Source: Roseburia sp.
Lineage (GTDB): Bacteria; Bacillota; Clostridia; Christensenellales; Pumilibacteraceae
Direction of reading: 5' to 3'
Assembly (NCBI GenBank): GCA_023665905.1
Contig: JAMPDA010000002.1
Location: 27,832 to 91,831, forward strand
Length of the DNA: 64,000 nt
Below the pieces are notes generated by a model, which saw only the letters and a list, made by a program, of their open reading frames with translations, had not been told where the DNA came from and made no database searches. This document shows, one piece after another, positions 9,600 through 49,131 of the stretch. Both the position numbers and the translations under genes were made by a program. Within the stretch, counting starts at the first letter, position 1; each line of letters begins with the position of its first letter.

Positions 9600-9716
9600 A
9601 TGAAAGTCAGATCTTCCGTAAAACCCATGTGCGACAAGTGCAAAGTGATCCGCCGTCACGGCAAGGTCATGGTCATTTGCAGCAAAAACCCCAGCCATAA
9701 ACAGCGTCAGGGCTAA
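9600..9716 (+). CDS. rpmJ: 50S ribosomal protein L36 (below ORF-track cutoff)
   Basis: Manual translation [38 protein letters not shown]; RBS AGGAG upstream. Confidence 0.99.
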
Positions 9717-9813
9717 GCCGAAATCAACCGCGCGCGCTTTTTCCGCGACATTCCACACGGCAGAAGCGCACACGAACCAAATAAACAAACAAATCATTTA
9801 AGGAGTCATCAAA

Positions 9814-10191: not shown

Positions 10192-10194
10192 ACC

Positions 10195-10584
10195 ATGGCA
10201 GGCAAAAAGACAACGACAAGAAAAAAGATAACCAAAAATATCGACAAGGGCTGCGTCCACATTCATGCGTCGTTCAACAACACCATCGTCACGGTAACGG
10301 ACGAGCAGGGCAACGTTTTGACGCAGTGCTCCGCCGGCGCGCTCAAGTTCAGCGGATCGCGTAAGTCCACGCCGTATGCGGCGCAGATGGCGGCGGAAGA
10401 AGCCGGACGTCGCGCCATGGAGCACGGACTGCGTTCCGTCAAAGTATTCGTAAAAGGACCGGGCTCGGGCAGAGAGTCCGCTATTCGCGCGATGGAAGTC
10501 GTGGGCTTGCAGGTCACGGAGATCAACGACGTGTCGCCCATTCCGCACAACGGCTGCCGTCCGCCCAAACGTCGGAGAGTGTAA
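10195..10584 (+). CDS. rpsK: 30S ribosomal protein S11
   Basis: [33 protein letters not shown]. Confidence 0.99.
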
Positions 10585-10599
10585 GGAGCGATATAGATC

Positions 10600-11220
10600 A
10601 TGGCAAGAAACATTTGTGCAGATTGCAGACAGTGCCGCCGCGAAGGACAGAAACTGTTTTTAAAGGGCGAGCGCTGCGTATCCAAAAAGTGCGCGATGGA
10701 GCGCCGTCCCGTTCCCCCGGGACCGCACGCCGCCACTCGGCGTAAAAACAGCGAGTACAACACGCAGTTGCGCGAAAAGCAAAAGGTAAAGCGCGCGTAC
10801 GGCGTTTTGGAAAAGCAGTTCAGAATGTACTACGAAAGAGCAGAAGCGCAAAAGGGCGTAACGGGTGAAAACATGCTCGCCATGCTCGAAAAGCGCCTTG
10901 ACAACGTGGTGTTCCGCATGGGCATCGGCGCGTCGCGCAAAATGGCGCGTCAGATAGTCAACCACGGCCACATTCTCGTAAACGGCAAGCGCGTAGACAT
11001 TCCGTCGTATCAGGTAAAGCTCGGCGACGAAATAACCGTAAGAGAAACGAGCCGCGACAACGCGCTCTTCAAAGAGCTGCGCGGCGCGAAGGTAATAATG
11101 CCCAAATGGGTAACGTTCGATACGGAAAACTTCGTCGGTAAAATAGTGGATAACCCCAAGCGCGACGATATCGATCTCAACATCAACGAGCAGCTCATCG
11201 TCGAGTTGTATTCCAAGTAA
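10600..11220 (+). CDS. rpsD: 30S ribosomal protein S4
   Basis: CRQCRREG, LEKRLDNVVFR, HGHILVNG. Confidence 0.99.
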   Translation: MARNICADCRQCRREGQKLFLKGERCVSKKCAMERRPVPPGPHAATRRKNSEYNTQLREKQKVKRAYGVLEKQFRMYYERAEAQKGVTGENMLAMLEKRLDNVVFRMGIGASRKMARQIVNHGHILVNGKRVDIPSYQVKLGDEITVRETSRDNALFKELRGAKVIMPKWVTFDTENFVGKIVDNPKRDDIDLNINEQLIVELYSK

Positions 11221-11234
11221 GGAGATAGCGCACT

Positions 11235-12188
11235 ATGATGGAAATAGAAATGCCGAGGATCACGCTGGAGGAAAGCGACAGCTACCGCACGGGCAAGTTT
11301 GTCGTCGAGCCGCTCGACCGCGGATACGGTCACACGCTCGGCAACGCGTTGCGCCGCGTGCTGCTTTCCAACCTCCCCGGCGCGGCAGTCATCGGTATCA
11401 TGATAGAGGGCGTCGATCACGAGTTTTCGACGGTCAAGGGCGTCAAAGAGGACGTGACGGAGCTTATCCTCAACCTCAAGTCGCTCAACCTCAAGGCTAA
11501 CTACACCGACAAGACGCTCGTAAAGGAGCTCCATATCCAAAAGAGCACTCCCGGCGCAGTCACCGCGGCGGATATAGACGTCGATCCCGAGATAGACATA
11601 CTCAACCCCGACCTGTATCTGTGCACGCTCGACGCCGGAGCGAAGCTCGACATGACGCTTTTCGTCGGCAAGGGCAGAGGCTATGTCGTTGCGGACGAGC
11701 TTAAAGACCCGTCCCGCCCGATAGGCTATATCCCGATCGACGCGATCTTCACTCCCGTCAAGTTCGCGGCGTACTCGGTAGAGCCGACGCGCGTCGGGCA
11801 GTCGATGGACTACGACAAGCTCACGCTCAACGTCAAGACCGACGGCTCGCTTTCCGCAAAGGACGTATTGAGCCTCGCGGCAAAAGCGCTCGAAGACCAC
11901 GTAAAGCTGTTCGTGGCGCTTTCGGACACTATTTCCGGCATGGATATACTCGTGTCGCGTTCGGAGGACAGACAGCAAAAGGTTCTCGAAATGAGCGTGG
12001 AAGAAATGGATCTGTCCGTCCGCAGCTACAACTGCTTAAAGCGCGCCGGAATACACACTGTGGCAGACCTCACGCGCAAGACGGAAGAAGACATGCTCAA
12101 GGTTCGCAACCTCGGCAGGAAATCGCTCGACGAGGTCATAGCGAAACTGCGCAACTTCGGGCTCGACCTCAAGGCCTCGGAAGATTAA
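11235..12188 (+). CDS. rpoA: RNA polymerase alpha subunit
   Basis: EPLDRGYGHTLGNALRRVLLS, LSVRSYNCLKRAG, RNLGRKS. Confidence 0.99.
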   Translation: MMEIEMPRITLEESDSYRTGKFVVEPLDRGYGHTLGNALRRVLLSNLPGAAVIGIMIEGVDHEFSTVKGVKEDVTELILNLKSLNLKANYTDKTLVKELHIQKSTPGAVTAADIDVDPEIDILNPDLYLCTLDAGAKLDMTLFVGKGRGYVVADELKDPSRPIGYIPIDAIFTPVKFAAYSVEPTRVGQSMDYDKLTLNVKTDGSLSAKDVLSLAAKALEDHVKLFVALSDTISGMDILVSRSEDRQQKVLEMSVEEMDLSVRSYNCLKRAGIHTVADLTRKTEEDMLKVRNLGRKSLDEVIAKLRNFGLDLKASED

Positions 12189-12273
12189 TCGATGCTTTAG
12201 AGCGCGATATGGGACATCCCCGTCGCCGCGCTCGAAAAGCAGATACAATTCGTGATAGGAGAAACAAACAACC

Positions 12274-12783
12274 ATGGAACAGAGAAAACTTTCCCTGCCG
12301 ACAGACCGTCGTAAAGCGTTACTGCGCAGTCAAGTGACTGCGCTGTTGTGGAACGAAAAGATCACCACTACGTACGCGCGCGCAAAGGAAGTGTCGCGCA
12401 TTGCCGACGGACTTATACAGCTCGCCGTCGATACCGTTCTCGACGTCAAGAAAGAGATCAAGCACGGCGTAGATAAAAAGGGCAAGCCCATCGATATAGA
12501 AACCATCGTAGACGGCGAAAAGCGCCTTGCCGCACGCCGCAAGATAATGGAGTTCGTGTACGATCCGCCCGAAACTCGCAAGCCCGACGAAACAGCTGTC
12601 GCTTTCCGCGAGCGCACAAAGGACATTCGTCATCCGCTCGTCGAAAAGATCTTCAACGTCTACGCGATACGCTATTCCCAGCGCAATCGCGACAACAACA
12701 GCAGCGGCGGATATACGCGCGTGCTCAAGCTCGGCGCACGCCGCGGCGACGCTGCCGAGGAAGCGATCATCGAGTTGGTGTAA
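12274..12783 (+). CDS. rplQ: 50S ribosomal protein L17 with internal insertion
   Basis: ITTTYARAKE, GGYTRVLKLGARRGDAA..AIIELV; longer than a typical L17. Confidence 0.97.
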   Translation: MEQRKLSLPTDRRKALLRSQVTALLWNEKITTTYARAKEVSRIADGLIQLAVDTVLDVKKEIKHGVDKKGKPIDIETIVDGEKRLAARRKIMEFVYDPPETRKPDETAVAFRERTKDIRHPLVEKIFNVYAIRYSQRNRDNNSSGGYTRVLKLGARRGDAAEEAIIELV

Positions 12784-36895: not shown

Positions 36896-36970
36896 GCGGA
36901 AATGGCTCAATGGTAGAGCAGTAGCTTCCCAAGCTGAAGGTTGCGGGTTCGATTCCCGTTTTCCGCTCCA
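36896..36970 (+). tRNA. tRNA-Gly(CCC)
   Basis: Acceptor GCGGAAA/TTTCCGC, anticodon loop TTCCCAA, GGTTCGATTCC T-arm, TCCA end. Confidence 0.97.
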
Positions 36971-36998: not shown

Positions 36999-37074
36999 CG
37001 AGGTGTAGCGCAGTTGGTAGCGCGCATGGTTCGGGACCATGAGGCCGCGAGTTCGAGTCTCGCCACTTCGACCA
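36999..37074 (+). tRNA. tRNA-Pro(CGG), integration target
   Basis: Acceptor CGAGGTG/CACTTCG, CATGG-TTCGGGA-CCATG anticodon arm, ACCA end. Confidence 0.97.
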
Positions 37075-37076
37075 CA
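37030..37076 (+). repeat. att core, left copy (3' part of tRNA-Pro from the anticodon loop)
   Basis: TTCGGGACCATGAGGCCGCGAGTTCGAGTCTCGCCACTTCGACCACA identical to 48010-48056. Confidence 0.95.
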
Positions 37077-37123
37077 TAGGGCGCTTGCCCGACCTAAGGA
37101 CCGTTCGACCGCGAACGGTCTTT

Positions 37124-38029
37124 TTAATTGCGCGGCTCGAGAACAGCATTGAGCTTTGCCGCTTCGCGCAGACTGTAGTCGATACTTACATCGCTGTATA
37201 TGTCCGCAGTGGTGGCGATCTCCGAATGTCCGAGCCAGGTCTGCACGACTTTCATCGGGATATCCGCCTCCAGGGCACGTGTCGCGAACGTATGTCGCAG
37301 GTCGTGCAGTGTATGGTTGGCGCAGTATTTTTTAAAGTTCTTTGATACGTAATCCGGTTGAAAGGGGAACAGCGCGCCGGTGTTCGGAAGCTCCGGCAAA
37401 AGCCGTTGTATGCCGTCGAATATCGGGATATACCGGTCGGATAGAACCGTCTTAGTGCCGCGAATGTGAATGACGTGCTTTTGCTCGTCGATGTCCTCGC
37501 GGTGAACGGCGAGCGCTTCGTTGCGGCGACATCCGGAATACAGGCAGAACAGATAATAATGCTCGAGCTTAGCTCCGTGTATCGCACGCATGAATTCGGA
37601 TTGTTCCTCGAGCGTCAGCGCTGTTCCTTTGTGTCGCTTCGCCTTGCAGCTCTTGATCTTCGACATCGGGTTATACTCGATCAACTGCTCTGCGACCGCT
37701 TGCCGGAACGCGCCGGAAAGCAAATTGTGCACACTTTCGCGCGTGCGCGGAGCCGGAATAGCGTTCAACACTTTCTGAATATCCATAGGTCGAACGTCCT
37801 TAAGCGGCAGGTCGTCGGGCAGGTTTGGAGCAATGTGCAGACGAATATTTCGCCTCATTTGCTTGAACGTTTCCGGCGCGACAGTGTTACTCTTGTAGAC
37901 GTCTATAAACGCACACAACCAGGCAAGCAGCGTCATTCCTTGCGTCGCCGGCTGTATGTCGGTGAGCCTGCCGAGCGCGCGTAGCGCTTCATCGAGCATA
38001 TGAAAAATGTCGGATAGTTCGTCGTTCAT
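37124..38029 (-). CDS. tyrosine recombinase (integrase)
   Basis: SGCRRNE (R), GTKT (K), HDLRH (HxxR), LGH and ADIY (Y) catalytic residues; adjacent to att. Confidence 0.96.
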   Translation of the reverse strand: MNDELSDIFHMLDEALRALGRLTDIQPATQGMTLLAWLCAFIDVYKSNTVAPETFKQMRRNIRLHIAPNLPDDLPLKDVRPMDIQKVLNAIPAPRTRESVHNLLSGAFRQAVAEQLIEYNPMSKIKSCKAKRHKGTALTLEEQSEFMRAIHGAKLEHYYLFCLYSGCRRNEALAVHREDIDEQKHVIHIRGTKTVLSDRYIPIFDGIQRLLPELPNTGALFPFQPDYVSKNFKKYCANHTLHDLRHTFATRALEADIPMKVVQTWLGHSEIATTADIYSDVSIDYSLREAAKLNAVLEPRN

Positions 38030-38037
38030 TACACACC

Positions 38038-38070
38038 ATTATATATAAGAATACTTATTTTGTCAATAAG
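38038..38070 (-). promoter_or_regulatory. consensus promoter of the integrase with overlapping palindromic operator
   Basis: Minus strand TTGACA(38066-38061)-17 bp-TATAAT(38043-38038), 8 nt before ATG; CTTATT-N5-AATAAG palindrome at 38054-38070. Confidence 0.75.
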
Positions 38071-38098
38071 TTTTCTTATAATTTGCTATAATTATATT

Positions 38099-38350
38099 AT
38101 GAATTTTGCTTGCAAAATAAAAGAGTTGCGGTTAGAGGCGCATATAACTCAAAAAGAACTTGCAAAACAACTCGGTTGTACTCAACCTATGATTACACTA
38201 TGGGAAAAAGGGGAATGTGAACCGACGGAAAGCGTAATACGAAAAACGGCTTTATTTTTCAACGTTTCCGCCGATTACTTACTCGGCCTTGAAGATGAAA
38301 ATGGTGTAAAGACCTATTGCAACATATACAACAATTACGGCACCCATTAG
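38099..38350 (+). CDS. XRE/Cro-C1-type HTH repressor
   Basis: IKELR...TQKELAKQLGCTQ..I..WEKG..EP...FNVSADYLLG; divergent from integrase; start re-called at MNFACK. Confidence 0.93.
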   Translation: MNFACKIKELRLEAHITQKELAKQLGCTQPMITLWEKGECEPTESVIRKTALFFNVSADYLLGLEDENGVKTYCNIYNNYGTH

Positions 38351-38383
38351 GGCGACGTAAAATTCTAACATCGGGAGAAGACT

Positions 38384-39496
38384 ATGGCATCCAAAACTTG
38401 TGCTATATGCGGAAAACCAAGCGGAATGTACCCATTGTGCAATAATTGTTTTAAACTTCGGGATGAAGGAAAAATAAAAAAATGTCCGAAATGTGGAACA
38501 TGGCATTTATCAGAAAATGAATGTACATGTGGATATAAAATATATCATACTGAATTTCCTAAACAAGGTTTTGATAACTGTGTAATATGTGGAAATAAAT
38601 CGAATGGATATGCATTCTGCAAAGATTGTTGGAACAAATTTTCTTTTGATGAGGATGGTTTATTAGATACTCTGAATAATTATGAAAACGAGAAGAACAC
38701 CGGCAATACTTCTAAAGAAAGTATTAGTCTGTCGCAAACTAAAGTAATGGAAAAATTTACTAATTGTATAGTCTGTAATGAAAACTCCAATGGATATTCG
38801 CAATGTAGAAATTGCTATAATGAAACATTAAATTTTAAAGATTCATTTGATAAAAACACTCGAGCTTTTGAATTTAGAGACTATTATTTCAATCTTAAAA
38901 GCAACATAATGAGAATACGGGAATTTATAAAAGTACAAGAAAACTGCAACAAACTGATGGCAATAGCTCTAATAAATGCAGAACAAAATAACGATAACAC
39001 ACTAAAAGATAGAGTAATTGAAGATATTCAAGATATAATAAAAAAAAGAAAACCCTTAACGACAGATAAAGTTTCAGAATACACACAAAAACAAGATTCA
39101 CAAAAAGAATATATTAAAAGGACTTTAGATGGTCATATTGTAAAAAGCGATGCCGAAGTAATCATTGACGATATTCTCTATAATTTAAGAATACCCCACT
39201 GTTATGAAAAAAGAGTAAGTGAAATAAATGATGAGGAACGAACCATAATGTGTGATTGGTTTATTCCCATTGAAAGTAATAGTAAAGGGATTTATATCGA
39301 GTATTGGGGAATGGACACAGACAAATATATTCAAAACAAAAAAGAAAAGAAAAATCTTTATAAAGTCAACGATATCCCGCTTTTAGAAATTGAAAAGGAT
39401 GAAATAAAATCCGATTCACAAGGATTGCAAGATAGAATACGAATCGAATTAAATAAAATCGCAAGAAAATATTACCGAATTAAAAATAAATTTTAA
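38384..39496 (+). CDS. AT-rich cargo protein: repeated Zn-finger modules plus putative PD-(D/E)XK/DUF559-like nuclease domain
   Basis: Three CxxC-x7-8-CxxC modules plus CPKC...CTC; C-terminal VKSDAE..IDDIL...YEK...CDW...IYIEYWG pattern. Confidence 0.7.
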   Translation: MASKTCAICGKPSGMYPLCNNCFKLRDEGKIKKCPKCGTWHLSENECTCGYKIYHTEFPKQGFDNCVICGNKSNGYAFCKDCWNKFSFDEDGLLDTLNNYENEKNTGNTSKESISLSQTKVMEKFTNCIVCNENSNGYSQCRNCYNETLNFKDSFDKNTRAFEFRDYYFNLKSNIMRIREFIKVQENCNKLMAIALINAEQNNDNTLKDRVIEDIQDIIKKRKPLTTDKVSEYTQKQDSQKEYIKRTLDGHIVKSDAEVIIDDILYNLRIPHCYEKRVSEINDEERTIMCDWFIPIESNSKGIYIEYWGMDTDKYIQNKKEKKNLYKVNDIPLLEIEKDEIKSDSQGLQDRIRIELNKIARKYYRIKNKF

Positions 39497-39570
39497 GCGA
39501 CGACTTATTCACTCCGGTAAATGACACCGTTTGATGTTGCGCATACTCGCCAACTATAACATAATCGCAC

Positions 39571-39599
39571 TTGACAGCCCGCAAATCCTATGCTATACT
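39571..39599 (+). promoter_or_regulatory. promoter of the Phd-YoeB operon
   Basis: TTGACA-17 bp-TATACT with extended TG; near-identical copy at 48263-48291. Confidence 0.85.
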
Positions 39600-39627
39600 T
39601 GCATATACTGTAAAGGAGATGAAAACC

Positions 39628-39885
39628 ATGCCTGTTGCAAGTAAAAAAGATTTTTCCAACAATCTGTCCGATTATCTTAGTGCAGTAATTTCGCGTGGCG
39701 AAAAAATCCAAGTAACGACCGATGAAGGCGGCGCGATCGTTATGTCGGCAGACGAATATAACAATTTAATGGAAACGCTATATCTATACAGTATCCCCGG
39801 CATGAAAGAAAAAATCGAGAACGGTATCAATACAGACTTATCCGACTGCGTTGACTTCGATTGGCGTAAGGAACTCAAAGACTGA
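39628..39885 (+). CDS. Phd/YefM-family antitoxin
   Basis: F..NLSDYL..V...E...VT...G.AIVMSADEYNNLMETLYL pattern; AAGGAG RBS; overlaps the toxin start. Confidence 0.9.
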   Translation: MPVASKKDFSNNLSDYLSAVISRGEKIQVTTDEGGAIVMSADEYNNLMETLYLYSIPGMKEKIENGINTDLSDCVDFDWRKELKD

Positions 39886-40142
39886 TGTATCGGATAGTAA
39901 GAACGCGCAAAGCGGAAAAGGATATCGAACTTCTGAAAAGTTCGCATTTGAACAATAAAGCTATGGCGTTATTGGAAATCATCGAGAGAAATCCGTACGA
40001 ACGTCCTGTAGAAAAGCTAATAAATTTAAACAACACATATTCAAAAAGGATCAACGGAAAACACCGGCTTGTATATGAAGTATTCGAAGATATAAAAACA
40101 ATTAAAGTAATAAGTTTATGGGGACACTACGACGATAATTAA
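39885..40142 (+). CDS. Txe/YoeB-family toxin
   Basis: YSKRINGKHRLVYEV...IKVISLWGHY. Confidence 0.93.
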   Translation: MYRIVRTRKAEKDIELLKSSHLNNKAMALLEIIERNPYERPVEKLINLNNTYSKRINGKHRLVYEVFEDIKTIKVISLWGHYDDN

Positions 40143-40147
40143 TAAAC

Positions 40148-40179
40148 AAAAAATCGCTCGAAATATCGGGCGATTTTTT
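40148..40179. terminator. bidirectional terminator between YoeB and Rep
   Basis: AAAAAATCGCTCG-aaatat-CGGGCGATTTTTT. Confidence 0.85.
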
Positions 40180-40241
40180 ATGTGTACTATGAGATAATAT
40201 TATTTTTTAATTTTGATCCCCGCACAGCTTATTAACCGGGA

Positions 40242-41585
40242 TCAGAAGGGAAGATCGTCATCATCATCGGATTGCAAACTCAAATCTAAGCGTAATTGTA
40301 TGAATTTCTTAACCGGACCGGGCTCTTTTGCGTCATCGGAAGATATCGGAGTGTCTTCATCGGGAACGCGTGCAGCCAAGTATTCTTGTACATACTTGTA
40401 TGCCTTTTTTCGAGATATGCATTTAAGCGATTTATTATGTAATCGTTCTTTCAGCTCGAGAAGCTTGAACGTAAACCCGACAGGATCTTCCACTTCTTTC
40501 AATCGACGTATAACATACTCATAAGCGGCGAGAATGTCCGAATCGATTTCCCATTCGTCTTTCGGCAGTTTGTACCAGGCGCCGTAGCCTTGCCCGAAGT
40601 GCATGTTTTTGATTAACGGCACAAGCACTTTAAACTGATAATACATCATCGGCGAGCCGTTTTTTGTGAGTTTCGTGACATACTTAAAAGCTTCGTGCCA
40701 AGACTGTCCCTCGATTTTGTCTATAACACAGCTATAACCTTGACGTCGAAATGAATTTAACATATGCATACTCACATTGTATTTACCGCACCACTTTTCG
40801 AGCTTGTTTTGATTAACGGCTATGCCGTTAAGAACATAATCGACGATTATTTTGTCGAGCCGTATGCGATTATACTTCAACGCGAGTATTTTCTGTATGA
40901 GTATCTCAAGATCGGAAAACTTGCGCGTAAATATTCCGCGACTGAAACTGTAATCGTTAGTAAATAACTTGTCTTCGGCGAGATCTTTCTTGAGCGCGAG
41001 TATGCAATGATAATGCGGGTGAAAACTATCCGGGTTTAAAACGATCTCTATGTTCCTATAACAGGCATAGAATCCGTAAGATGCAAAATCTATACCCGCG
41101 ACTTTAGAATTGCCGGTAAAATAGCGTATAACACTCTGAAATGCGCTCGACAAGCGATCGAGCGAATCTCGCAGACTGTCGATAGGACAGTTTGGAACGG
41201 TAAGCGTCATCATATAGAGGTCATGGTCTTTCACGACATCTTCGAATATTTTAGTAAAACGCTGTAATTGCGCTGCTTGTCGAAGATGTTGACAGTTGAC
41301 GCATAATCTGTCGTGGCATAGGAATATTTGCTGTACGTCAAAAACTTCCTGCATGTCATAATATTCACCACACCAGCGTTTATGGCAATTAAGCATGCGC
41401 TCCGCGTTCTTTTTGTACTGCTCGTCGTCGAGCTCGTCGGCGAGTTGACTGTAATATTCGGCATACACGTCGTTAAATGTAGTATTGTGATCGAGCTTGT
41501 CCACTTCGTCCGATGTTATTTCTATCGACGGCGGCGCTTCGAATACCGGGACAAGCTCCGGTTGTTTTTTCATCTTGTTACCCAT
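40242..41585 (-). CDS. HUH-superfamily rolling-circle replication initiator (Rep_1, pC194/pUB110-like)
   Basis: CHDRLCVNC, motif I MTLTVPN, motif II HPHYHCI, motif III EAFKYVTK, GYG near the end. Confidence 0.92.
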   Translation of the reverse strand: MGNKMKKQPELVPVFEAPPSIEITSDEVDKLDHNTTFNDVYAEYYSQLADELDDEQYKKNAERMLNCHKRWCGEYYDMQEVFDVQQIFLCHDRLCVNCQHLRQAAQLQRFTKIFEDVVKDHDLYMMTLTVPNCPIDSLRDSLDRLSSAFQSVIRYFTGNSKVAGIDFASYGFYACYRNIEIVLNPDSFHPHYHCILALKKDLAEDKLFTNDYSFSRGIFTRKFSDLEILIQKILALKYNRIRLDKIIVDYVLNGIAVNQNKLEKWCGKYNVSMHMLNSFRRQGYSCVIDKIEGQSWHEAFKYVTKLTKNGSPMMYYQFKVLVPLIKNMHFGQGYGAWYKLPKDEWEIDSDILAAYEYVIRRLKEVEDPVGFTFKLLELKERLHNKSLKCISRKKAYKYVQEYLAARVPDEDTPISSDDAKEPGPVKKFIQLRLDLSLQSDDDDDLPF

Positions 41586-41919
41586 ACGCTCCTCCCTTAA
41601 CGCGTAAGCTTATTTCTATATGTCAAGTGGTTGCCCTCGCGCCGCTGCGCGGCGCTCGTCAACCATCACCCGGGCACGGGCGCGGCGGCAAGCCACTCGC
41701 GCCCGTGCCCGGGGTTTTGTTTTTGCCGCTTCGCGGCAGGCGGGGAGTGGATAAGAGCGGGCCGTGCGGTGGCCCGGCTCGAGGGAGCGGCGGTCGTTGG
41801 GATTGCTCCTCGTCGCCGGCTTCCGTCGCGGCGCACGTCATAGCTCGCTTCGCTCGGACGTGCGGCTCTGCTTCTCGTTCCGTGTCCGCTCCGTCTGTTC
41901 GACTTTGCGGCTGTTCGGG
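41586..41919. other. putative replication origin region (dso/sso-like)
   Basis: Non-coding, GC-rich, upstream of rep; perfect 16-bp inverted repeat 41669-41684/41698-41713; minus-strand CTTGACATATAGAAATAA at ~41610-41627 resembles the pC194-family nick region. Confidence 0.6.
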
Positions 41920-42012
41920 CTAAAGTCCAAAACGGTGTATGAGATACACCGTAAGCAGCGACACGCCGATGTCGGCGGTCAAGCGAATGACCCATTTGAG
42001 AAATTCTCGCAT
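41920..42012 (-). CDS. 30-aa hydrophobic peptide (Fst/Ldr-like type I toxin or minor virion protein)
   Basis: Manual translation MREFLKWVIRLTADIGVSLLTVYLIHRFGL; AAAGGAG RBS 8 nt upstream. Confidence 0.7.
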   Translation of the reverse strand: MREFLKWVIRLTADIGVSLLTVYLIHRFGL

Positions 42013-42105
42013 GTTCTTTGCTCCTTTATTGTTGTTTTTCGCTCCGATCGTTGACCACGTTTGTCAACGCCGGAAAGATCTTTCGGGGAATTTATTGTAA
42101 AAGCC

Positions 42106-42239
42106 TTGACTTTCGTCTGTAGACGGAATATACTTGTAGACAAGGTAGCGAACTCAACCGGTCACGGTTGTTTATGTCGGAGTTCTGAAGAACGCCCGAC
42201 CCGCAGGCAAGAAGTGATAATATGTCACTTCTTTTTTTT
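42106..42239 (+). ncRNA. putative sRNA cassette (promoter 42106-42134, RNA ~42141-42239)
   Basis: TTGACT-17-TATACT; hairpins CAACCG/CGGTTG and GTCGG/CCGAC; terminator AAGAAGTGA/TCACTTCTT plus T-run; no ORF beyond MSEF. Confidence 0.6.
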
Positions 42240-42695
42240 GGGCTTTTTTAGCACCATCCCCGTATGAACGAGCGCATTATGTGTATCATTACTGCCTAAA
42301 GTAAACTGCTCTTTTCCCTCGGGAAACACGGTTTTGTCCTCTATATCCAGCGGCTTGCCGGATATGCGGTTTCTATCGAAACGCTGAAAGTCTACGCCCG
42401 TTCGGTTCGGAAGCCCGTATCGTTCGTGGTTGATCTCCACAAGCGCCGGATCGGCGTTCTTCCCGTTTGCGTCGAACTTCTTGACGGTCTTTAGCTTGGC
42501 GACGGTGACGTTTTTGCCTTTTTCTCGGACTACGACGTAATCGCGTTGCTTCTTGGGCTCGACGTCTATGTACTTTGTTTCACCGCGGTAAACCTTGCCG
42601 ACTTTGTTCTCTTTATCGGCGCGCTCCGCATAACTTCGGCGTATGGCGCGTTTCTGCGCTTCCGATTTGCAGTGGAATTTAGACTTCTTCGCCAT
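42225..42695 (-). CDS. basic hypothetical protein, possible PemK/MazF-like fold
   Basis: GGAGGA RBS; GKVY...KQRDYVVV...VTVAKL pattern loosely like PemK G.IY...RP.VVV...V.V. Confidence 0.7.
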   Translation of the reverse strand: MAKKSKFHCKSEAQKRAIRRSYAERADKENKVGKVYRGETKYIDVEPKKQRDYVVVREKGKNVTVAKLKTVKKFDANGKNADPALVEINHERYGLPNRTGVDFQRFDRNRISGKPLDIEDKTVFPEGKEQFTLGSNDTHNALVHTGMVLKKPKKKK

Positions 42696-42960
42696 GAGGA
42701 TCCTCCGAACAGGGCATTGTAGCTCCGGTCGTTGACACAGCTTGTCCGCACCGTAACCGTTTGCGCTGAAGTCGTCGATGTCGTTTATACCATTTATCGA
42801 TCAGTTTAAATGTCCTGCACATATTGCGTCGGACATACGATAAAAAGATATCCACGTCGGCTTCTGGCATGTAGTCTACGGTATCGTACACACAGCGATA
42901 CGTCTGTTTGTAGCGTTCGAATACCTCGTCAATAATGTCGTTCTTAGAGAGATCTATCAT
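42679..42960 (-). CDS. 93-aa hypothetical protein coupled to the ATPase gene
   Basis: Start MIDLSKND overlaps the ATPase stop; operon packing. Confidence 0.65.
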   Translation of the reverse strand: MIDLSKNDIIDEVFERYKQTYRCVYDTVDYMPEADVDIFLSYVRRNMCRTFKLIDKWYKRHRRLQRKRLRCGQAVSTTGATMPCSEDPHGEEV

Positions 42961-43778
42961 CGTTTTTGCTCCTTTTTGTAGAAACCGTCCGGAAGCTCGT
43001 CGTCGAAATCCGACAGCCATTTAATGTAGCCGTCAAAATTATCTTCGGTGAGCTCCGCAGCGGAGTAGTCTATATCGCTGTCCAAATGCCCTTTGTAAAA
43101 CTTCGGTTTACAGCTGTAACTGTCGTAAAAATCGAATATGGGCGCGTCGACCACAAACTCGCTCTCGGTGTAGCAGCTCGTGTCGCGCTTCCCGCTCGAG
43201 CAATACGCTTCGTATTGCTGTAAATTGTCCATATGCCGGAGCGTCCAGACGAACCGGCACGGACGGTTCCACCTGTCGTAACCGGCTATAACCAGCTTGA
43301 CAACCTCGATGAACTGCGCCAGCTCGCGGACATTAAGGTCGATCAACCCGACACGTTGTGTATCCAGGTATATATCTAACCAGTTATGTCCGTGCTGCTC
43401 ATACCAGCGACTTTGCCAATCGGGGTAATTAGCATTTCTGCGGCTGTTGAGATACTTCTGCGCTTCGGTTATGCAGATACACTCGTACGGCAGATTGAAA
43501 TGTGTATCAACATAAGCGTTGGCAAAGCCCAATCGGTACGGGTTTATCCGGCGTGTATAACGCGGGTAATATCCGAACCGGCGAAAAACCATGTCGTAAT
43601 TAGCGGACACGCAATGCTCGGGGATCGTCGTTATATTGGCAAACCCCGACGCCTGCTTCTGTAACAGCTCACGACGCATTGCGCGATTGCGGTCTTTATC
43701 GTACGCGGTCTTATACGCAATAGCGGTCAATAACGCTGTTTTTCCGGTTCGCGGCGGCGCAAAAATTATGGTTATCAT
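42957..43778 (-). CDS. Zot/pI-like (inovirus morphogenesis-type) P-loop ATPase
   Basis: Start MITIIF (ATGA overlap); Walker A APPRTGKT, Walker B-like CICITEAQKYLNSR, HGHNWLDIYLDTQRVGLIDLNVREL matching the Zot HxHxxxD...TQ....ID..xR motif. Confidence 0.85.
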   Translation of the reverse strand: MITIIFAPPRTGKTALLTAIAYKTAYDKDRNRAMRRELLQKQASGFANITTIPEHCVSANYDMVFRRFGYYPRYTRRINPYRLGFANAYVDTHFNLPYECICITEAQKYLNSRRNANYPDWQSRWYEQHGHNWLDIYLDTQRVGLIDLNVRELAQFIEVVKLVIAGYDRWNRPCRFVWTLRHMDNLQQYEAYCSSGKRDTSCYTESEFVVDAPIFDFYDSYSCKPKFYKGHLDSDIDYSAAELTEDNFDGYIKWLSDFDDELPDGFYKKEQKR

Positions 43779-45175
43779 GAATCTTTCCCTCGCCGGATAA
43801 TCGCCCGCACAAGCCGCACAGGAGCCATGATGAGCCATAGCAGACCTTTGCCGATCCACACCAGGCACTGTAGTAGCAATGGTCCGATAACCGGCAAAAA
43901 CAATAAAATTACAAATATAACGAAAATGACAACAACCCAGGACACCCAGCTGTATGAAGAACCGCCAAAAACTTTGTTAAAGAAACTTCCGATAACCCCC
44001 AAAACATCAGTAAAACCGTCCCAAAACTTTTGCCAGGCTGAACGAGAATCTGTGTCGTAAATTCGATCGTTTTGATTTGTATTATCGGGGATAAAACTTC
44101 CAAGATATGTATCGTTGACAACACCCAGCTCATATACCATTTCCTCGCTTACAAATTTAAGAGATACCATTGTAACGGCGGTGACAATAGTATGCCGTAA
44201 AGTTCCCACCGGATAATTTAATGCTACATAAGGTTCCGTTAAATATCTCAAAACCCACTGTTTATCAATTATTTTAGCTTTGGCGCTGTCCTCCAATTGC
44301 TCCGTATCGAGAAAATCGGCAACGGATTGTATGCAATTCCACGTGTATTTCACCGCATGCGTTCCGCCGGAAGTATTGGTGTCCACGTCTGTATAAGATA
44401 AATGCACAGTCTTAGATGCCGTATTTAATACCTTATCGACTACATAAGGATACGTAGCTGATGAAATCAAATGAGTTTCCGACTCATAATACACGTCCGC
44501 TTCAATGAGATTATCTATTTTATAGTAGGTGGAAAAAGCAACGAAATTATTATCTACAGAAGTTAAAAGACCGGACGCATAACGGACAAGCCCGATATAC
44601 TCGTCCGTTATAGTTATGACTTCTACATCATGCCTGTTATAGCTGGTGTTATCGATTACCCACTCCGCACCGACAGGGTAAGCTATTTCGGTTATGGGAG
44701 TTGAGCCGTTCTGAGCACCGTCGATATCCGGCTCCCATGCTCGATAAATAGACGTAATATCATAACGCCGCACAGAATTATAGGATACAGCGACGCCTTG
44801 AACCTTATACTTGAACAACGTGTTATAATTTCCCAAATATGTCAAATCATAACGCTGTCGTTTGACATTATCTGTTGCAAGATTAATGCCGGTTGCTCGC
44901 ACATCATTTTTCCCGGACGGTTGATATACGTATACAACAATGCCTTGCGTATCTGTTTCCGCGATCTGTATTATTTGTAAAGAATAATCGCCGGACTTTA
45001 CGGGATAATCGGCTATATTTAAACCTGTATTGGAAAAATCGTCAAGGACAGTGACGATATCTTCTTCCGCATGCGCGCTCGGTAGAACCGGCACGGCGAG
45101 CAAGAACATCATAAGCAGTACTGCGCACAATATTGCGGTCAGGATCTTACGTAAGTTTGTCTTTATTGAGATCAT
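43775..45175 (-). CDS. 466-aa membrane-anchored protein (signal peptide, ectodomain, C-terminal TMs and basic tail)
   Basis: Signal ...LLAVPVLPSAHA; C-terminal WVVVIFVIFVILLFLPVIGPLLL..., RLVRAIIRRGK; GAGGTG RBS. Confidence 0.85.
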   Translation of the reverse strand: MISIKTNLRKILTAILCAVLLMMFLLAVPVLPSAHAEEDIVTVLDDFSNTGLNIADYPVKSGDYSLQIIQIAETDTQGIVVYVYQPSGKNDVRATGINLATDNVKRQRYDLTYLGNYNTLFKYKVQGVAVSYNSVRRYDITSIYRAWEPDIDGAQNGSTPITEIAYPVGAEWVIDNTSYNRHDVEVITITDEYIGLVRYASGLLTSVDNNFVAFSTYYKIDNLIEADVYYESETHLISSATYPYVVDKVLNTASKTVHLSYTDVDTNTSGGTHAVKYTWNCIQSVADFLDTEQLEDSAKAKIIDKQWVLRYLTEPYVALNYPVGTLRHTIVTAVTMVSLKFVSEEMVYELGVVNDTYLGSFIPDNTNQNDRIYDTDSRSAWQKFWDGFTDVLGVIGSFFNKVFGGSSYSWVSWVVVIFVIFVILLFLPVIGPLLLQCLVWIGKGLLWLIMAPVRLVRAIIRRGKDS

Positions 45176-45240
45176 AGTATCACCTCGAGAGAAACGGCAA
45201 AGGTCGAGAGCTTAAAACTCTCGACCACACCGGTTGTTGA

Positions 45241-46875
45241 CTATCTGTTTTTGCGTTTCCGGACAACGGCGGCTACAATCGCTATTACGACTAAGCCGGC
45301 GACGGCAAAGCACGGGATCAACACGTACTACTTATAATGATCCCACCAGGTTACACGACGTTCCGTCACCTCGAGATCGGACAACCGCGCGTATAGCGTC
45401 ACGTCGCCGGTAAGCTCGTCGGATCTAACAGCTTCTCTGCTGAAGCCGGTATCGTAATACCAGCCGCCGAAAGCCTTACCCTCTACGTCCACGTCGTACA
45501 GGTACGAGGACAGGGTACTGCCGTACGGCACGAGCTTGGACACGACGTCGCCGTCAACGTTAAAATTGACGAGCACCATGCGCGTTATTGTCGTGCCGGC
45601 ATTGAACGCGGACACGTCTATGGACATCTCGTGCGTTGCGAGAGCTTGTCCGACATTGCCCAGGGCGCGAACGCGCACCGTGTATTCGCCGGTAACGTGT
45701 ATGTACGCCGAGGCGTCGAACGTCGGCTCGTCTACGACAAAGTCGCTCGTGTGTCCGCGATCGTCTATAGACACAAAATATCCGCATGCGCCGTCCACTT
45801 CCGCCCAGCTCAACACTCCGGACGAGAACGTTATATCTGTTGGAGCCGCAAGACGAGATATGGAGAAGTAGACAGGCGGAACGGACAGAGCGACGGCGTA
45901 AGTAATGCCGGCTTGGTTTTGCATTGTGCCAAAGGAATACGGTTCAAAAGTAATCGTATAATCGCCCAGAACGTCAACGAAAGTCAGCTGTGTCAGATCG
46001 ATAAAGAGATATTCGCCGTCAATAGTGCCGAGCGAATCATTGTGGGTATTGTAGCAATTATGCCCCGCGCCGGTAGTGTAGCAGTCGGTATATCCGTTTC
46101 CGGACACTTCGACATAATAGCCGATATGCCCACCGTATGGATATGACTCGTTCAAGAACGGATTAGAAAAATACGGCTCGCCGTAAAAACTGTTAATGCG
46201 CAGAGTAGTGTCTGTAAACTCGACTTCGACGTCTGTAGTCGGGAAGTAGATCGGGTTAGAATAAGCCGTATCGCTGTTGACGTATTGATTGGAACCGGAG
46301 CCGCCGGACATAAAGTTGTACACCGAAAGAACCGGGCACAAGCCTGTATGGAACGAACCGTACGTATCGTTTGCGGCGAGATAATCGGCGTAAGGCTTTA
46401 AAGCGCTGTACGATACAAAAATACGCCATGTGGAGAGACCGCCTTGTGTTTGAATCGTCGACGTAAATAAAGACAAAGGACGGGTAATTTTGTCATCGAT
46501 ATTGTTCCGCCACCCGTCCAGAATAGTCAGCTGACACACGGTGCCGATTGGCGGATAACCGGTTGTGACGATATACACGCCGGTGTCGGTATACTCGAAT
46601 GTCGGGGTCGGGAGCTTTGTCACGGCGAAAACGGCAGAGCTGTCCTCGCTGTCGTACAAAAGTCCGGCGTTTGCAGCAGATCTGTTCATGCCGGTTTCGG
46701 ACGGCTCGGCTTCCGTGTCGGTCGGAACGGCGACGGCTGATCCTTTACCCCAACAGTTGAACCAGGCAGAAGGATCCCACGTTCGGAAGCCGGACGTCGC
46801 CCAGGCGAGAATGCCGAACAGCGCCGCCACGAATACGATCATGATGATCCAATTATTCCTCGATTGTCTTGTCAT
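45241..46875 (-). pseudogene. surface/attachment-like protein interrupted by an in-frame TAG just before its C-terminal TM anchor
   Basis: 515 aa from MTRQSR (N-terminal TM, FN3-like LAAPT..LSW..V.GA.GY, Flg_new-like FGGWYYD...TLYA), TAG at 45328-45330, then in-frame YVLIPCFAVAGLVVIAIVAAVVRKRKNR to 45241. Confidence 0.75.
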
Positions 46876-46972
46876 AAAAAATCCCCACCGCTTCATGGCA
46901 TACGGCACGCCATTATAATTAGATGGGGTCTTACTTATATACCGCCGATACCCCGTCACTGCGGTCAAGAAA

Positions 46973-47443
46973 TTACAAGCCGATATCGTCTTCATCCGAC
47001 GCGATAGGAACGTCATCATCGACTATACTGGTTATGCCGAGCAGCGGATTAGCAAGATCGCGAAATACCGAAGAAAACCGTTCTTTAACAGCAAATTCTA
47101 TTTCGTAATCAGGCGCAAACGGAGATTTCGCAAACACGCCGGCATAAGTAACATCGCGCTTCTTTTTCTTCGAATAATACGTTACGGCACGGATTTCGAC
47201 ATTAAATTCGACCTCAGGCACAGTTCGTAACGCCTTTTTACCATAATAGTCGATGTGTCCCTTAACGCTGTCCCAACGCGGCGAAATGCCGACGTTAATG
47301 AAATCGGGGTCGCCGAACGGGTCGAGAATGACGGTTGATATTGCACTCCGCTTTTGCCCGTCGTCGGCTTTAAATTCGAACAGCCTCATTACAGCCGTAG
47401 CGGTAAGGACTTCCGCCGGTTCTTGCACTTGTTTCTTTTCCAT
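46973..47443 (-). CDS. putative ssDNA-binding protein
   Basis: Start MEKKQV after AAAGGAG; beta-strand/aromatic pattern, acidic tail DDDVPIASDEDDIGL; located in an RCR element. Confidence 0.55.
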   Translation of the reverse strand: MEKKQVQEPAEVLTATAVMRLFEFKADDGQKRSAISTVILDPFGDPDFINVGISPRWDSVKGHIDYYGKKALRTVPEVEFNVEIRAVTYYSKKKKRDVTYAGVFAKSPFAPDYEIEFAVKERFSSVFRDLANPLLGITSIVDDDVPIASDEDDIGL

Positions 47444-47505
47444 AATTACTCCTTTGCCGATACATACCCTCGGTCGCGGGTTTATGTATTTTTTGCCTTT
47501 ACGGC

Positions 47506-47550
47506 TGGAGGCGCGGGCGGGAGTTGAACCCGCCATGTCCCGGTCGCGCC
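47506..47550 (-). ncRNA. 45-nt tRNA-like minihelix (acceptor plus T arm, tRNA-Cys-like end)
   Basis: GGCGCG-ACCGGGACAT-GGCGGG-TTCAACT-CCCGCC-CGCGCC-TCCA: 6+6 bp stems, consensus T-loop, U discriminator, CCA. Confidence 0.6.
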
Positions 47551-47634
47551 ATGACCATGCCCGCAAGGAGGAGCAGGCACGGTACAGAGGGAAGATGAGA
47601 GCCCGTCATGCCGATAGCCCAGCAAGAAAAACTA

Positions 47635-47940
47635 TTAAAGACGTTGAGCACGTTCAACGCCGGCACGGAACGATCTTTTATTCTCGTCGCGCACGGGAAC
47701 GCGCTTGCCGGACTTTGCCGCGCCATACCCGACACCGGCATGAAACGCCGCTTTTTGACTGTCGGTGTGTTGCGACACACTGCGCGCCGGGGAACGTTTA
47801 CCGCCGGCACATAACGAATTTAACCGTTCCTGCGCGTACCGACGTTGTCCGTCCGTCAACTTCGGATCGTTCACGCGTCGCTCGTAATACGCGCATTTCT
47901 GTTGAACGGAGTATGTCTTATCCGCTTTTTTATTTGCCAT
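47635..47940 (-). CDS. 101-aa basic hypothetical protein, first gene of the minus-strand operon
   Basis: AAAGGA RBS; Arg/Lys-rich; fills the space next to the right att. Confidence 0.7.
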   Translation of the reverse strand: MANKKADKTYSVQQKCAYYERRVNDPKLTDGQRRYAQERLNSLCAGGKRSPARSVSQHTDSQKAAFHAGVGYGAAKSGKRVPVRDENKRSFRAGVERAQRL

Positions 47941-48009
47941 AATTAGTCCTTTGCCCTTAACCCCATTGGGCGCGAGGTGATTATCATTAACAGCTTAAGC
48001 CGGTTATTT

Positions 48010-48056
48010 TTCGGGACCATGAGGCCGCGAGTTCGAGTCTCGCCACTTCGACCACA
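48010..48056 (+). repeat. att core, right copy
   Basis: Identical to 37030-37076. Confidence 0.95.
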
Positions 48057-48103
48057 CAGGGCCGTTAGCCCGACCTAAGACCGTTCGACCGCGAACGGTC
48101 TTT

Positions 48104-48235
48104 TTAATTGTGCGGCTCGAGAACAGCATTGAGCTTTGCCGCTTCGCGCAGACTGTAGTCGATACTTACATCGCTGTATATGTCCGCAGTGGTGGCAATC
48201 TCCGAATGCCCGAGCCAGGTCTGCACGACCTTCAT
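48104..48235 (-). pseudogene. integrase C-terminal fragment (43 aa)
   Basis: MKVVQTWLGHSEIATTADIY...LEPHN versus ...LEPRN in the intact copy; three differences are synonymous. Confidence 0.9.
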
Positions 48236-48319
48236 TGCTCGCCAATTATAACATAATCGCACTTGACAGCCCGCAAATCTTATGCTATACTTGCATATAC
48301 TGTAAAGGAGATGAAAACC

Positions 48320-48565
48320 ATGTGCGTTACGACCGCCAACAAATTTATAAAAAACGCCGGCGCGTACTTGAACGACGTACTTTCGGGCGAACAAAATGTT
48401 ACCGTTGCAACCGAAAACGGCAACGCTGTTCTTTTATCCGAAGAGGAGTACAACAGCTTAAAAGAAACGTTGTATCTTTTAAGTGTTCCCGGAATGCGTG
48501 AAAAACTGCTTGAAGCACAAGCCCAATCCCCCGAAACGTGCAGGGTGTGGAATGGCGAACTTTAA
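48320..48565 (+). CDS. second Phd/YefM-family antitoxin
   Basis: NAVLLSEEEYNSLKETLYLLSVPGMREKL; same promoter and RBS as the first copy. Confidence 0.9.
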   Translation: MCVTTANKFIKNAGAYLNDVLSGEQNVTVATENGNAVLLSEEEYNSLKETLYLLSVPGMREKLLEAQAQSPETCRVWNGEL

Positions 48566-48821
48566 GATAATTATCACGGCGCAAGCTGATAAGGACTTAA
48601 TAAAGCTCAGACAATATCCGGCGCTTGTAAAAAAAGCCAATACGATTCTTACCGAGTTATCCGAAAATCCGTTTGTTCCGCCGCTCGAGAAGCTTTGCGG
48701 GGAATTATGTAACATGTATTCCAAAAGATTAAATAAACAGCATAGACTTGTCTATTCGGTAGACAAAGAAAATAAAACAATTAAAATATTGTCTTTATGG
48801 ACACATTACGAAAATATATAA
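48552..48821 (+). CDS. second Txe/YoeB-family toxin
   Basis: Start re-called at MANFKI; YSKRLNKQHRLVY..., IKILSLWTHYE; terminator AAGGACTG/CAGTCCTT follows. Confidence 0.92.
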   Translation: MANFKIIITAQADKDLIKLRQYPALVKKANTILTELSENPFVPPLEKLCGELCNMYSKRLNKQHRLVYSVDKENKTIKILSLWTHYENI

Positions 48822-48858
48822 AGGACTGCCGAAACAGTCCTTTTTTTATGAAATAGTA

Positions 48859-48971
48859 TTTATTCGAGGAGCAAATTTGCCCGTTAGCGCAATCACAGAT
48901 TGAGTTGTTTTTATTACGTATTATTGCAAAGCGAGAACGCAAGCAATGTTTCGTGTAACATTCGGCTGCCG
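48859..48971 (+). repeat. ~113-bp dispersed intergenic repeat, copy 1
   Basis: TTTATTCGAGGAGCA...GCGCAATCACAGATTGA...AAGCAAT...GGCTGCCG aligns by eye with the reverse complement of 59786-59899. Confidence 0.8.
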
Positions 48972-49028
48972 TGCGGGTTCTGGATTTGCCCGGGGGGGGG
49001 GTATAATACCTAATTTATTGTAAATGCC

Positions 49029-49131
49029 TTGACTTTCGTCTGTGGACGGAATATACTGTAAGCAAGTAACGACAGTTCCGCAGGGACGGTGCTAATGCTC
49101 ATGGAGTGTTTGGCGGTTCGTTACTTTTTTT
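49029..49131 (+). ncRNA. second putative sRNA cassette (promoter 49029-49057)
   Basis: Same TTGACT-17-TATACT promoter as 42106; the transcript is closed by an AAGTAACGA/TCGTTACTT stem plus T-run. Confidence 0.5.

Follow-up and report, generated by a model that had tools for sequence, protein, structure and literature searches.

The 64,000-nt stretch of DNA analysed here (the window; all coordinates below are positions in it) holds a genuine 11-kb integrated virus-like element of a gut Christensenellales host. With a probability of about 0.6, we consider it a temperate element in a large, barely annotated family of 10-12-kb elements that are related to filamentous (Tubulavirales-type) phages; its export mechanism would be non-lytic. 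An earlier note on this DNA had described a non-tailed integrated element that combines rolling-circle replication with a Zot-type ATPase, which our analysis supports. It had also called the virus undescribed. This does not hold, as inoviruses with a stand-alone Zot protein have been published (PMC8530359) and a distant relative is filed under Inoviridae. Gut Clostridia inoviruses with a stand-alone Zot are a kind already in the literature, and the class is not undescribed. The real interest lies in two features, a coat gene missing throughout the lineage and a paired fold resemblance to Acholeplasma phage L2.

The core of the element is a block of genes on the minus strand that runs from 47940 to 40242. 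In order, it encodes a 101-amino-acid (aa) protein, an acidic 156-aa protein, a 515-aa surface protein, a 466-aa membrane protein, the ATPase, a 93-aa protein, a basic 156-aa protein and a 30-aa peptide, followed by a structured region and the Rep_1 initiator. ATGA overlaps join the 466-aa, ATPase and 93-aa genes, and a further overlap links the end of the 93-aa gene to the basic 156-aa gene. No element protein matches a terminase, portal, capsid, tail or lysis family in scans of Pfam, PHROGs and NCBIfam, in agreement with the earlier claim that terminase, portal, capsid and lysin are absent.

A stand-alone Zot-family ATPase

The gene at 42957-43778 (minus strand) encodes a P-loop ATPase of the Zot/pI family that stands alone, with no transmembrane segment. 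Translation starts at MITIIFAPPRTGKT (MITIIF, 43778), within the ATGA overlap with the 466-aa gene, and the protein therefore has 273 aa, not 303. Its Walker A motif is intact and it matches phrog_197 ('Zot-like') at 4.8e-11. Across the ATPase family, 35 of 42 members match Pfam Zot (best 4.2e-8), the sole other family being generic AAA in one member, whereas FtsK, VirB4 and TraG are matched by none of the 42 in Pfam. The family profile aligns with the N-domain of Neisseria Zot (PDB 2R2A; 2e-7) over Walker B and the following helices. The AlphaFold2 (AF2) model (predicted local distance difference test, pLDDT, 82; predicted template modelling score, pTM, 0.81) has Inoviridae Zot proteins among its best matches in BFVD (E 1e-9). 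These results bear out the earlier assignment of a Zot/pI-motif ATPase without a transmembrane segment. They also answer the question that came with it, whether the protein might group with conjugative or FtsK ATPases instead: it groups with Zot/pI. A conjugative ATPase is ruled out by the family-wide Pfam scans and by a search of 72,556 plasmids, in which the ATPase has no relatives.

Searched against 1.84 billion cluster representatives, the ATPase profile found 384 clusters (50% identity) at E<=1e-3. Because nearly all of the listed full-length clusters measure ~240-310 aa, the window ATPase can be placed in a compact branch of the Zot family that has no transmembrane segment. The element thus has the pI/Zot ATPase of Tubulavirales, but without the transmembrane segment and C-terminal domain of classical pI.

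A rolling-circle initiator and its putative origin

The rep gene (40242-41585, minus strand) encodes a 447-aa HUH rolling-circle initiator of the pC194/pUB110 type (Pfam Rep_1 6.6e-17; 62.2 bits against a cut-off of 33.2). The earlier note had named it as such, and both catalytic motifs are present, the HUH motif HPHYH at residue 189 and the tyrosine of FKYVTK at residue 302. Together with a structured, conserved region beside rep, in which we infer the nick site, this provides the rolling-circle initiator that is typical of Tubulavirales.

The 640 nt between the basic 156-aa gene and rep hold a promoter-terminator unit, the 30-aa gene, a conserved block and hairpins. The part nearest to rep is a GC-rich, structured non-coding region of ~330 nt (41600-41915, minus strand). 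Here, a 20-bp perfect hairpin and a second hairpin are followed by CAACCACTTGACATAT (CTTGACA, 41621-41627) just upstream of rep. The strand that is predicted to be displaced folds far better as single-stranded DNA than shuffled controls (z -5.1). The block has 77% DNA identity to that of the relative L084, although the proteins of the two share only 45-72%, and the stretch CAACC(A/T)CTTGA(C/G/T)ATAT is kept in four loci whose Reps share only ~35% identity. Its CTTGA.ATA core resembles CTTGATA, which we take to be the nick site of pC194-type replicons. The region probably contains both the double-strand and the single-strand replication origin. A 95-nt piece of the block (41808-41901) also occurs twice in locus L037 (6421-6514 and 12048-12141), where the two copies flank the structural module, one on each side.

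Family breadth and architecture

Seeded tblastn found 111 loci in species-representative genomes, nearly all from Christensenellales or uncultured gut Clostridia. They include cultured Pumilibacter and Anaerocaecibacter strains, among these Pumilibacter muris CLA-AA-M08 (L017) and P. intestinalis CLA-AA-M10 (L040). Two architectures occur upstream of the ATPase. In type A, to which the window and both of these Pumilibacter loci belong, the ATPase follows a protein of 450-540 aa that carries a signal peptide and, towards its C-terminus, two or three transmembrane segments; ahead of this protein come one to three others whose N-terminus reads AxA|T(S/N)GF..W..WF. Type B has proteins of ~117, 52, ~450, ~172 and 600-1400 aa.

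L084 shares the layout of the window, with Rep-(xre)-int, and is flanked on either side by the att core. L173 carries early genes of 72, 75 and 209 aa, and L084 of 80 and 209 aa, in the interval from att to the 101-aa gene; none of them is hydrophobic, and the window is without them. Rep types are swapped among siblings; in some whose structural genes are the same, the Rep is of the G2P type of filamentous phages (PF23343), in keeping with the module exchange described for inoviruses (PMC6813254). Circularity was considered for L084, L085 and L087. Both ends of L084 and of L087 stop 30 nt inside the att core, which is no evidence of a circle.

In three loci, a different P-loop protein of 254 aa sits in the ATPase slot (L085, 5474-6238; L087, 6422-7186; L088, 9038-9802). 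It has a Walker A motif GKKGSGKD near residue 50 and resembles neither the Zot family nor any PHROG to a detectable degree. These loci keep homologues of the 515-aa, 466-aa and 156-aa proteins; apparently, either another motor has taken the place of the Zot protein or the motor has diverged past recognition. A related module is also found at 5740-12729 of a human faecal 'Bacteriophage sp.' scaffold (MT835493.1; L086). It comprises a 116-aa gene, three proteins with an N-terminal transmembrane segment and a 474-aa homologue of the 466-aa protein (33% identity), followed by a 47-aa transmembrane peptide and a 714-aa polytopic protein instead of a Zot gene.

Absence of a coat gene

A small hydrophobic coat protein is a defining feature of inoviruses. 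Between 41400 and 48100, the window has no hydrophobic open reading frame (ORF) of 45-80 aa, and L084, L087 and bajarodino virus 12, all of them complete relatives, have no small hydrophobic coat gene. The small (30-90 aa) alpha-helical transmembrane major coat protein of Tubulavirales is encoded neither between these positions of the window nor in the three relatives. The earlier note had likewise seen no coat-like ORF of 45-80 aa, only a 30-aa peptide, and had raised the possibility that a standard coat gene was simply lost here. Since complete window-type relatives are also without one, this comparison makes the absence a lineage trait and not the outcome of a deletion in the window copy.

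The 30-aa peptide (MREFLKWVIRLTADIGVSLLTVYLIHRFGL; 41920-42012, minus strand) is found in the window, L084 and L004. Its codons differ by 10 synonymous and 3 non-synonymous changes from L084 and by 18 and 5 from L004, and a ribosome-binding site, AAAGGAG, is conserved. By this pattern of substitution, it is a real gene under purifying selection. The peptide is absent from L001, L066 and L087, and the three loci are the only ones that carry it, which rules it out as a universal coat protein.

In type B loci, the 52-aa hydrophobic protein is strongly conserved (28 loci) and lies directly after the 117-aa gene, the canonical position of a coat gene. It is thus a candidate coat protein. A shorter version of it (33-38 aa) occurs in three type A loci. 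A six-frame hidden Markov model search of the window found neither form.

Membrane and surface proteins

The 466-aa protein (43775-45175, minus strand) has a signal peptide, a beta-sandwich ectodomain, C-terminal transmembrane helices and a basic tail, and thereby the N-terminal signal and C-terminal anchor ascribed to it earlier. In the AF2 model (pLDDT 84, pTM 0.70), beta-sandwich ectodomains are followed by three C-terminal helices. Its fold matches in the PDB are generic, of fibronectin type III (FnIII)- or arrestin-like type, with TM-scores of ~0.1. Homologues lie upstream of the ATPase in 25 loci, including bajarodino virus 12.

The gene before it encodes a surface protein that is shortened by a nonsense codon (45331-46875, minus strand; Pfam Flg_new 4e-8; 33 homologues). 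Its 515 aa have the conserved N-terminus AxA|T(S/N)GF..W...WF.YWGKG and a Listeria-Bacteroides repeat. An in-frame TAG (45328-45330) is followed by an orphaned transmembrane anchor of 28 codons with an RKRKNR tail (45241-45330, minus strand). At the position of the TAG codon, three loci and six database proteins (33-36% identity) have a tryptophan, in the context TWW(D/E)xxxW(Y/F/Q)(V/I), and all of them continue into the transmembrane segment and basic tail. A closer homologue (P0003, 45% identity) diverges around the TAG stretch, yet its anchor is contiguous. The 544-aa protein with a C-terminal anchor described in the earlier note is thus this 515-aa ORF with its anchor severed. We rejected a reading of TAG as a sense codon, since TAG is the ordinary stop of four other long ORFs in the window. 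Likewise rejected is a separate coat gene in the 27-28-aa ORF after the 515-aa gene, as this ORF is the in-frame anchor in all homologues. The window copy is accordingly predicted to make a secreted, unanchored 515-aa protein. Because the TGG-to-TAG change removes the anchor of a surface protein, this copy is probably impaired.

Resemblance to Acholeplasma phage L2

The top BFVD match of the 466-aa model is ORF1 (66.6 kDa) of Acholeplasma phage L2 (E 1.3e-5, probability 1.00, TM-score ~0.2). The ATPase model in turn matches L2 ORF3 (37.2 kDa; 2278-3216 in L092) at rank 6 (E 4.2e-6, probability 1.00, TM-scores 0.44/0.39). That two proteins should by chance match the same 15-gene virus in a library of several hundred thousand models seems unlikely. 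Still, the resemblance is a lead and not a finding, and it lies at the level of predicted folds only. By fold, L2 ORF3 itself falls among the Inoviridae Zot-like ATPases, ahead of A32-like packaging ATPases.

The two matches could point to a particle like that of L2, a membrane-bounded pleomorphic nucleoprotein with anchored envelope proteins, basic proteins that condense the DNA and an ATPase that serves packaging or budding. In L2, the genes run ORF13/ORF14, ORF1, ORF2, ORF3 (a P-loop protein without a transmembrane segment), ORF4 and integrase, in parallel with the order in the window. ORF13 and ORF14 are envelope proteins in which a signal peptide and Ig-like repeats are followed by a C-terminal transmembrane segment and a basic tail. 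L2 also has a 12-kb genome, a tyrosine integrase that inserts into a tRNA gene and genes on one strand. The missing small coat gene in the lineage of the window would fit such a particle, as would the very long basic tail that ends the 466-aa homologue of bajarodino virus 12.

Nevertheless, the TM-score to ORF1 is only ~0.2, and neither hhalign nor BLASTP finds a sequence bridge between the window and L2 beyond the P-loop and a transmembrane stretch. L2 homologues are found neither in the phage collection nor by seed patterns in genomes, and the ATPase model is matched better by Inoviridae Zot proteins than by L2 ORF3. L2 has double-stranded DNA (dsDNA), DnaA-box origins and no Rep, and the window, with its rolling-circle Rep_1, departs from this plan of the Plasmaviridae. 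Lastly, L2 buds from a wall-less host, and we know of no precedent for budding through a cell wall. On balance, we consider an L2-like particle unlikely.

The same matches could be taken further. Type A elements would then be walled-Firmicutes relatives of the orphan enveloped phage L2 that retain rolling-circle replication and a Zot-type motor. Large type-I membrane proteins with basic cytoplasmic tails and small basic DNA-condensing proteins would make up the particle, with no pVIII-like coat. We regard this as improbable. According to the 2018 profile by the ICTV, the international virus taxonomy committee, plasmaviruses share only the integrase with other viruses.

Integration site and a decayed neighbour

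A tRNA-Gly(CCC) gene (36896-36970) adjoins the tRNA-Pro(CGG) gene that is the integration target (36999-37074, plus strand; both by ARAGORN; Rfam tRNA 68 bits for tRNA-Pro). The attL core (37030-37076, plus strand) consists of the last 45 nt of tRNA-Pro and 2 further nt. Its exact copy, the attR core, lies at 48010-48056 (plus strand). The spacing of the two 47-bp direct repeats is 10,980 bp, and the same att core bounds the relatives L084 (10.5 kb) and L087 (11.2 kb). The 301-aa tyrosine integrase (37124-38029, minus strand) matches Pfam Phage_integrase at 9e-16, with a SAM-like N-domain, and phrog_1 at 4.7e-61, and its catalytic R..HxxR..H..Y residues are intact. Beside it is an Xre-type repressor (38099-38350, plus strand; HTH_3 5.8e-13), so that integrase and repressor are both present, as claimed earlier. 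Taken together, the element has inserted into the 3' end of tRNA-Pro by means of its own tyrosine integrase, duplicating the 47-bp core. For an empty-site comparison, the closest genome that has the downstream host gene is L093, in which no tRNA lies close by.

The exact repeats and their spacing are as first reported. However, the similarity does not end at 47 bp. After ~25 variable nt it resumes in blocks of 91-98% identity, because a decayed sibling element lies to the right of attR (48057-49066, plus strand). In this remnant, 48060-48235 corresponds to 37079-37255 (the integrase 3' end), 48238-48322 to 39546-39630 (the promoter of the toxin-antitoxin pair) and 49012-49066 to 42089-42144 (a promoter block), and all three blocks are collinear with the element. 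Next to the shared toxin-antitoxin promoter, the remnant has a second, diverged Phd/YoeB pair (48314-48821; Pfam 2.4e-12 and 1.9e-8). We read this region as the skeleton of an older sibling, beside which the present element has integrated.

Small soluble proteins

The operon begins, at a distance of 70 nt from attR, with the gene for a basic protein of 101 aa (47635-47940, minus strand; isoelectric point 10.4). Homologues in L084, L173 and L174 have a G(I/V)GYGAAK motif. The second basic protein, of 156 aa (42225-42695, minus strand; isoelectric point 10.0), has 137 database homologues, all unnamed, at 55-77% identity, as compared with 30-66% for the other element proteins. These identities put it ahead of every other protein of the module in conservation. 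Searches of Pfam, PHROGs, PADLOC, NCBIfam and PDB profiles gave no match for it. Two small basic proteins had been noted before, and their isoelectric points agree with this. The 93-aa gene (42679-42960, minus strand), which overlaps the ATPase gene by ATGA, has a homologue after the ATPase in 64 of 81 loci.

The acidic 156-aa protein (46973-47443, minus strand) occupies the position of a single-stranded DNA-binding protein (SSB) gene and, by alignment, has a conserved D-D-I-G-L tail. Gene position and this acidic tail are what supports its earlier description as SSB-like, and no homology search does. The protein ends in DEDDIGL (46973-47000, minus strand) and the Rep in DDDDDLPF (40242-40310, minus strand). 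Both acidic ends resemble the C-terminal tip of bacterial SSB, which recruits host replication proteins.

Cargo genes and promoters

On the plus strand, the element carries an AT-rich cargo gene (38384-39496; GC 28-32%; 370 aa) with three CxxC zinc ribbons and a PD-(D/E)xK-like C-terminal domain (Pfam DZR_2 1.6e-7). PADLOC matches it to PDC-S69 (2.7e-22), a candidate defence family, and to HEAT_CxxC_PD-DEXK (5.4e-9), making it a candidate defence gene. A 74-aa zinc-ribbon gene occupies the same slot in L084. The cargo gene is followed by a toxin-antitoxin pair (39622-40142, plus strand), a Phd/YefM antitoxin (39622-39885; Pfam 6.1e-12) and a YoeB toxin (39885-40142; 5.1e-7). An 11/12 promoter at 39571-39599 (promoter scan) precedes the pair.

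In the divergent region between int and xre, the promoter scan found a perfect sigma-70 consensus (TTGACA-17-TATAAT, 12/12; 38038-38066, minus strand) a short way upstream of the integrase gene. No consensus promoter lies in the 70 nt ahead of the 101-aa gene, and no terminator is predicted after the integrase gene on the minus strand. In the integrated layout, the integrase promoter is the only strong promoter near the minus-strand operon. It may be, though we say so with low confidence, that the operon is joined to this promoter only in the excised circle.

Between the 30-aa gene and the basic 156-aa gene, a near-consensus promoter (TTGACT-17-TATACT) is followed after ~70 nt by a strong intrinsic terminator (42106-42233, plus strand). 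The promoter block recurs in the decayed sibling (49029-49066, plus strand). The unit possibly encodes a small RNA of ~95 nt next to the 30-aa gene. This could be a type I toxin/antitoxin-like pair or an operon regulator.

Comparison with known systems

The nearest published kind is the 'Clade-1' of gut inoviruses with a stand-alone Zot, Ino-01 to Ino-06 (Sugimoto et al. 2021, PMC8530359). A stand-alone Zot is reported there as a feature of gut inoviruses that target Firmicutes, and the circular genomes are targeted by Clostridiales CRISPR. Like the window family, these are small elements of gut Clostridiales/Firmicutes with a Zot that has no membrane or periplasmic part fused to it, and both groups have exchangeable Rep types and were missed by virus catalogues and VirSorter (PMC8530359). 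In contrast, the Clade-1 genomes were selected for encoding an Inoviridae major coat protein, and the window and its complete relatives encode none.

Bajarodino virus 12 (PQ006185), a 9,828-bp circle from rodent faeces, is filed as Inoviridae. Its genes include homologues of those for the ATPase (28% identity) and for the 466-aa protein (27%), arranged as in the window, one upstream for a protein with an N-terminal transmembrane segment, an integrase gene and a repressor gene; it has no small hydrophobic ORF. It differs in having no Rep_1 and no homologues, by tblastn, of the 101-aa, 156-aa and SSB-position proteins, and is a distant relative only.

With the Ff-type and Gram-positive filamentous phages of the Tubulavirales (Inoviridae, Paulinoviridae, Plectroviridae), the window shares rolling-circle replication, the placement of all morphogenesis genes on a single strand and lysogeny in the absence of lysis genes. 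The gene order is also similar, with DNA-binding genes, then signal-peptide proteins that have a C-terminal anchor and basic tail (a pIII-like topology), then the Zot/pI ATPase. Unlike these phages, the window has no pVIII-type coat, no pVII/pIX/pVI set and no transmembrane or periplasmic domain in its ATPase. Instead, it has very large surface proteins and two conserved basic soluble proteins.

IME1 of Dehalococcoides occurs in integrated and episomal form, encodes a pI-like ATPase and has been proposed to represent non-lytic filamentous or budding viruses (bioRxiv 10.64898/2026.09.15.751708). It resembles the window in this ATPase and in the lack of tailed-phage hallmarks, but is 21-28 kb long, is proposed to be dsDNA, encodes several small hydrophobic proteins, resides in Chloroflexota and has no homology to the window. 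The link to pleolipoviruses drawn in the earlier note finds no support, as none of their proteins is among the top 50 BFVD fold matches of the 466-aa or the ATPase model. Pleolipoviridae, with their VP4-like spike, VP3-like membrane protein and VP8-like NTPase, have no fold, PHROG or Pfam support.

Proposed export mechanism and alternatives

If the element is indeed a relative of filamentous phages, the excised circle would replicate by rolling circle. The displaced strand would be handled by the acidic 156-aa protein and/or the basic protein(s). It would then be exported without lysis at a membrane complex, in which the soluble ATPase docks on the C-terminal transmembrane region and basic tail of the 466-aa protein. 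In line with their pIII-like topology, the two signal-peptide proteins would serve as surface or adsorption proteins. Since the sub-lineage encodes no pVIII-like coat, the body of the particle might be a filament of atypical kind or a nucleoprotein enclosed by a membrane.

Several observations weigh against a filamentous-phage relative. One is the missing coat gene described above, both in the window and in its complete relatives. The window ATPase itself stays below the Pfam Zot threshold (18.1 versus 20.3 bits), and the acidic 156-aa protein has no support as an SSB in Pfam, PHROGs, NCBIfam or a PDB profile search. Among the 2.9 million contigs of IMG/VR, there is one weak match to the ATPase and no relative of the basic 156-aa protein. 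Contig ends 30 nt into the att core are what a k=31 assembler produces from a circle or from the integrated state alike. Finally, the combination of integrase, rolling-circle Rep, P-loop ATPase and membrane proteins resembles the gene set of actinomycete integrative and conjugative elements.

This last point leads to a further alternative, a capsid-less integrative element that is mobilised or conjugates in the actinomycete style. Here, Rep_1 would nick the DNA in the manner of a relaxase, the ATPase would pump DNA into a neighbouring cell and the large surface proteins would be adhesins that serve cell contact. The gene content can be read in this way, as there is an integrase, a rolling-circle Rep, a single ATPase, adhesin-like proteins (Flg_new repeat), a toxin-antitoxin pair and defence cargo, with no coat gene, and the family is almost absent from virus catalogues. 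However, the ATPase belongs to the Zot family, and scans of the window proteins against Pfam and NCBIfam gave no match to relaxase, VirB, Tra, FtsK/TraB, VirB4 or coupling-protein families. Nothing similar to the ATPase was found in the plasmid collection. Two core proteins have homologues in a 9.8-kb circular faecal genome that is filed as a virus, and related stand-alone-Zot circles are CRISPR targets (PMC8530359). We therefore hold a conjugative element to be quite unlikely.

A dead remnant, no longer mobile and kept only for its cargo (the toxin-antitoxin pair and the defence nuclease), is very unlikely: the copy may be crippled by its nonsense mutation and by the absence of early genes present in its closest relatives, L173 and L084, and a fully decayed sibling adjoins it, but all other genes are open, the integrase, Rep and Walker A motifs are intact, the att cores are identical and some family members naturally have no C-terminal anchor.

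Implications

Taken together, we propose that the element belongs with the small non-lytic phages of gut Clostridia, which virus finders mostly miss. IMG/VR has next to nothing of the family, yet its ATPase occurs in >100 species-representative genomes. With a defence-nuclease candidate and a toxin-antitoxin pair on board, the element may shape the phage resistance of its host. The paired ORF1/ORF3 fold matches offer a lead to relatives of the Plasmaviridae. If the kinship were true, that family would gain its first relatives beyond the integrase and a link to the assembly ATPase of filamentous phages. The sub-lineage keeps the motor of filamentous phages without a coat gene, which poses the question of what such a motor would assemble without pVIII. 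The cultured carriers make this question of the particle testable at the bench.

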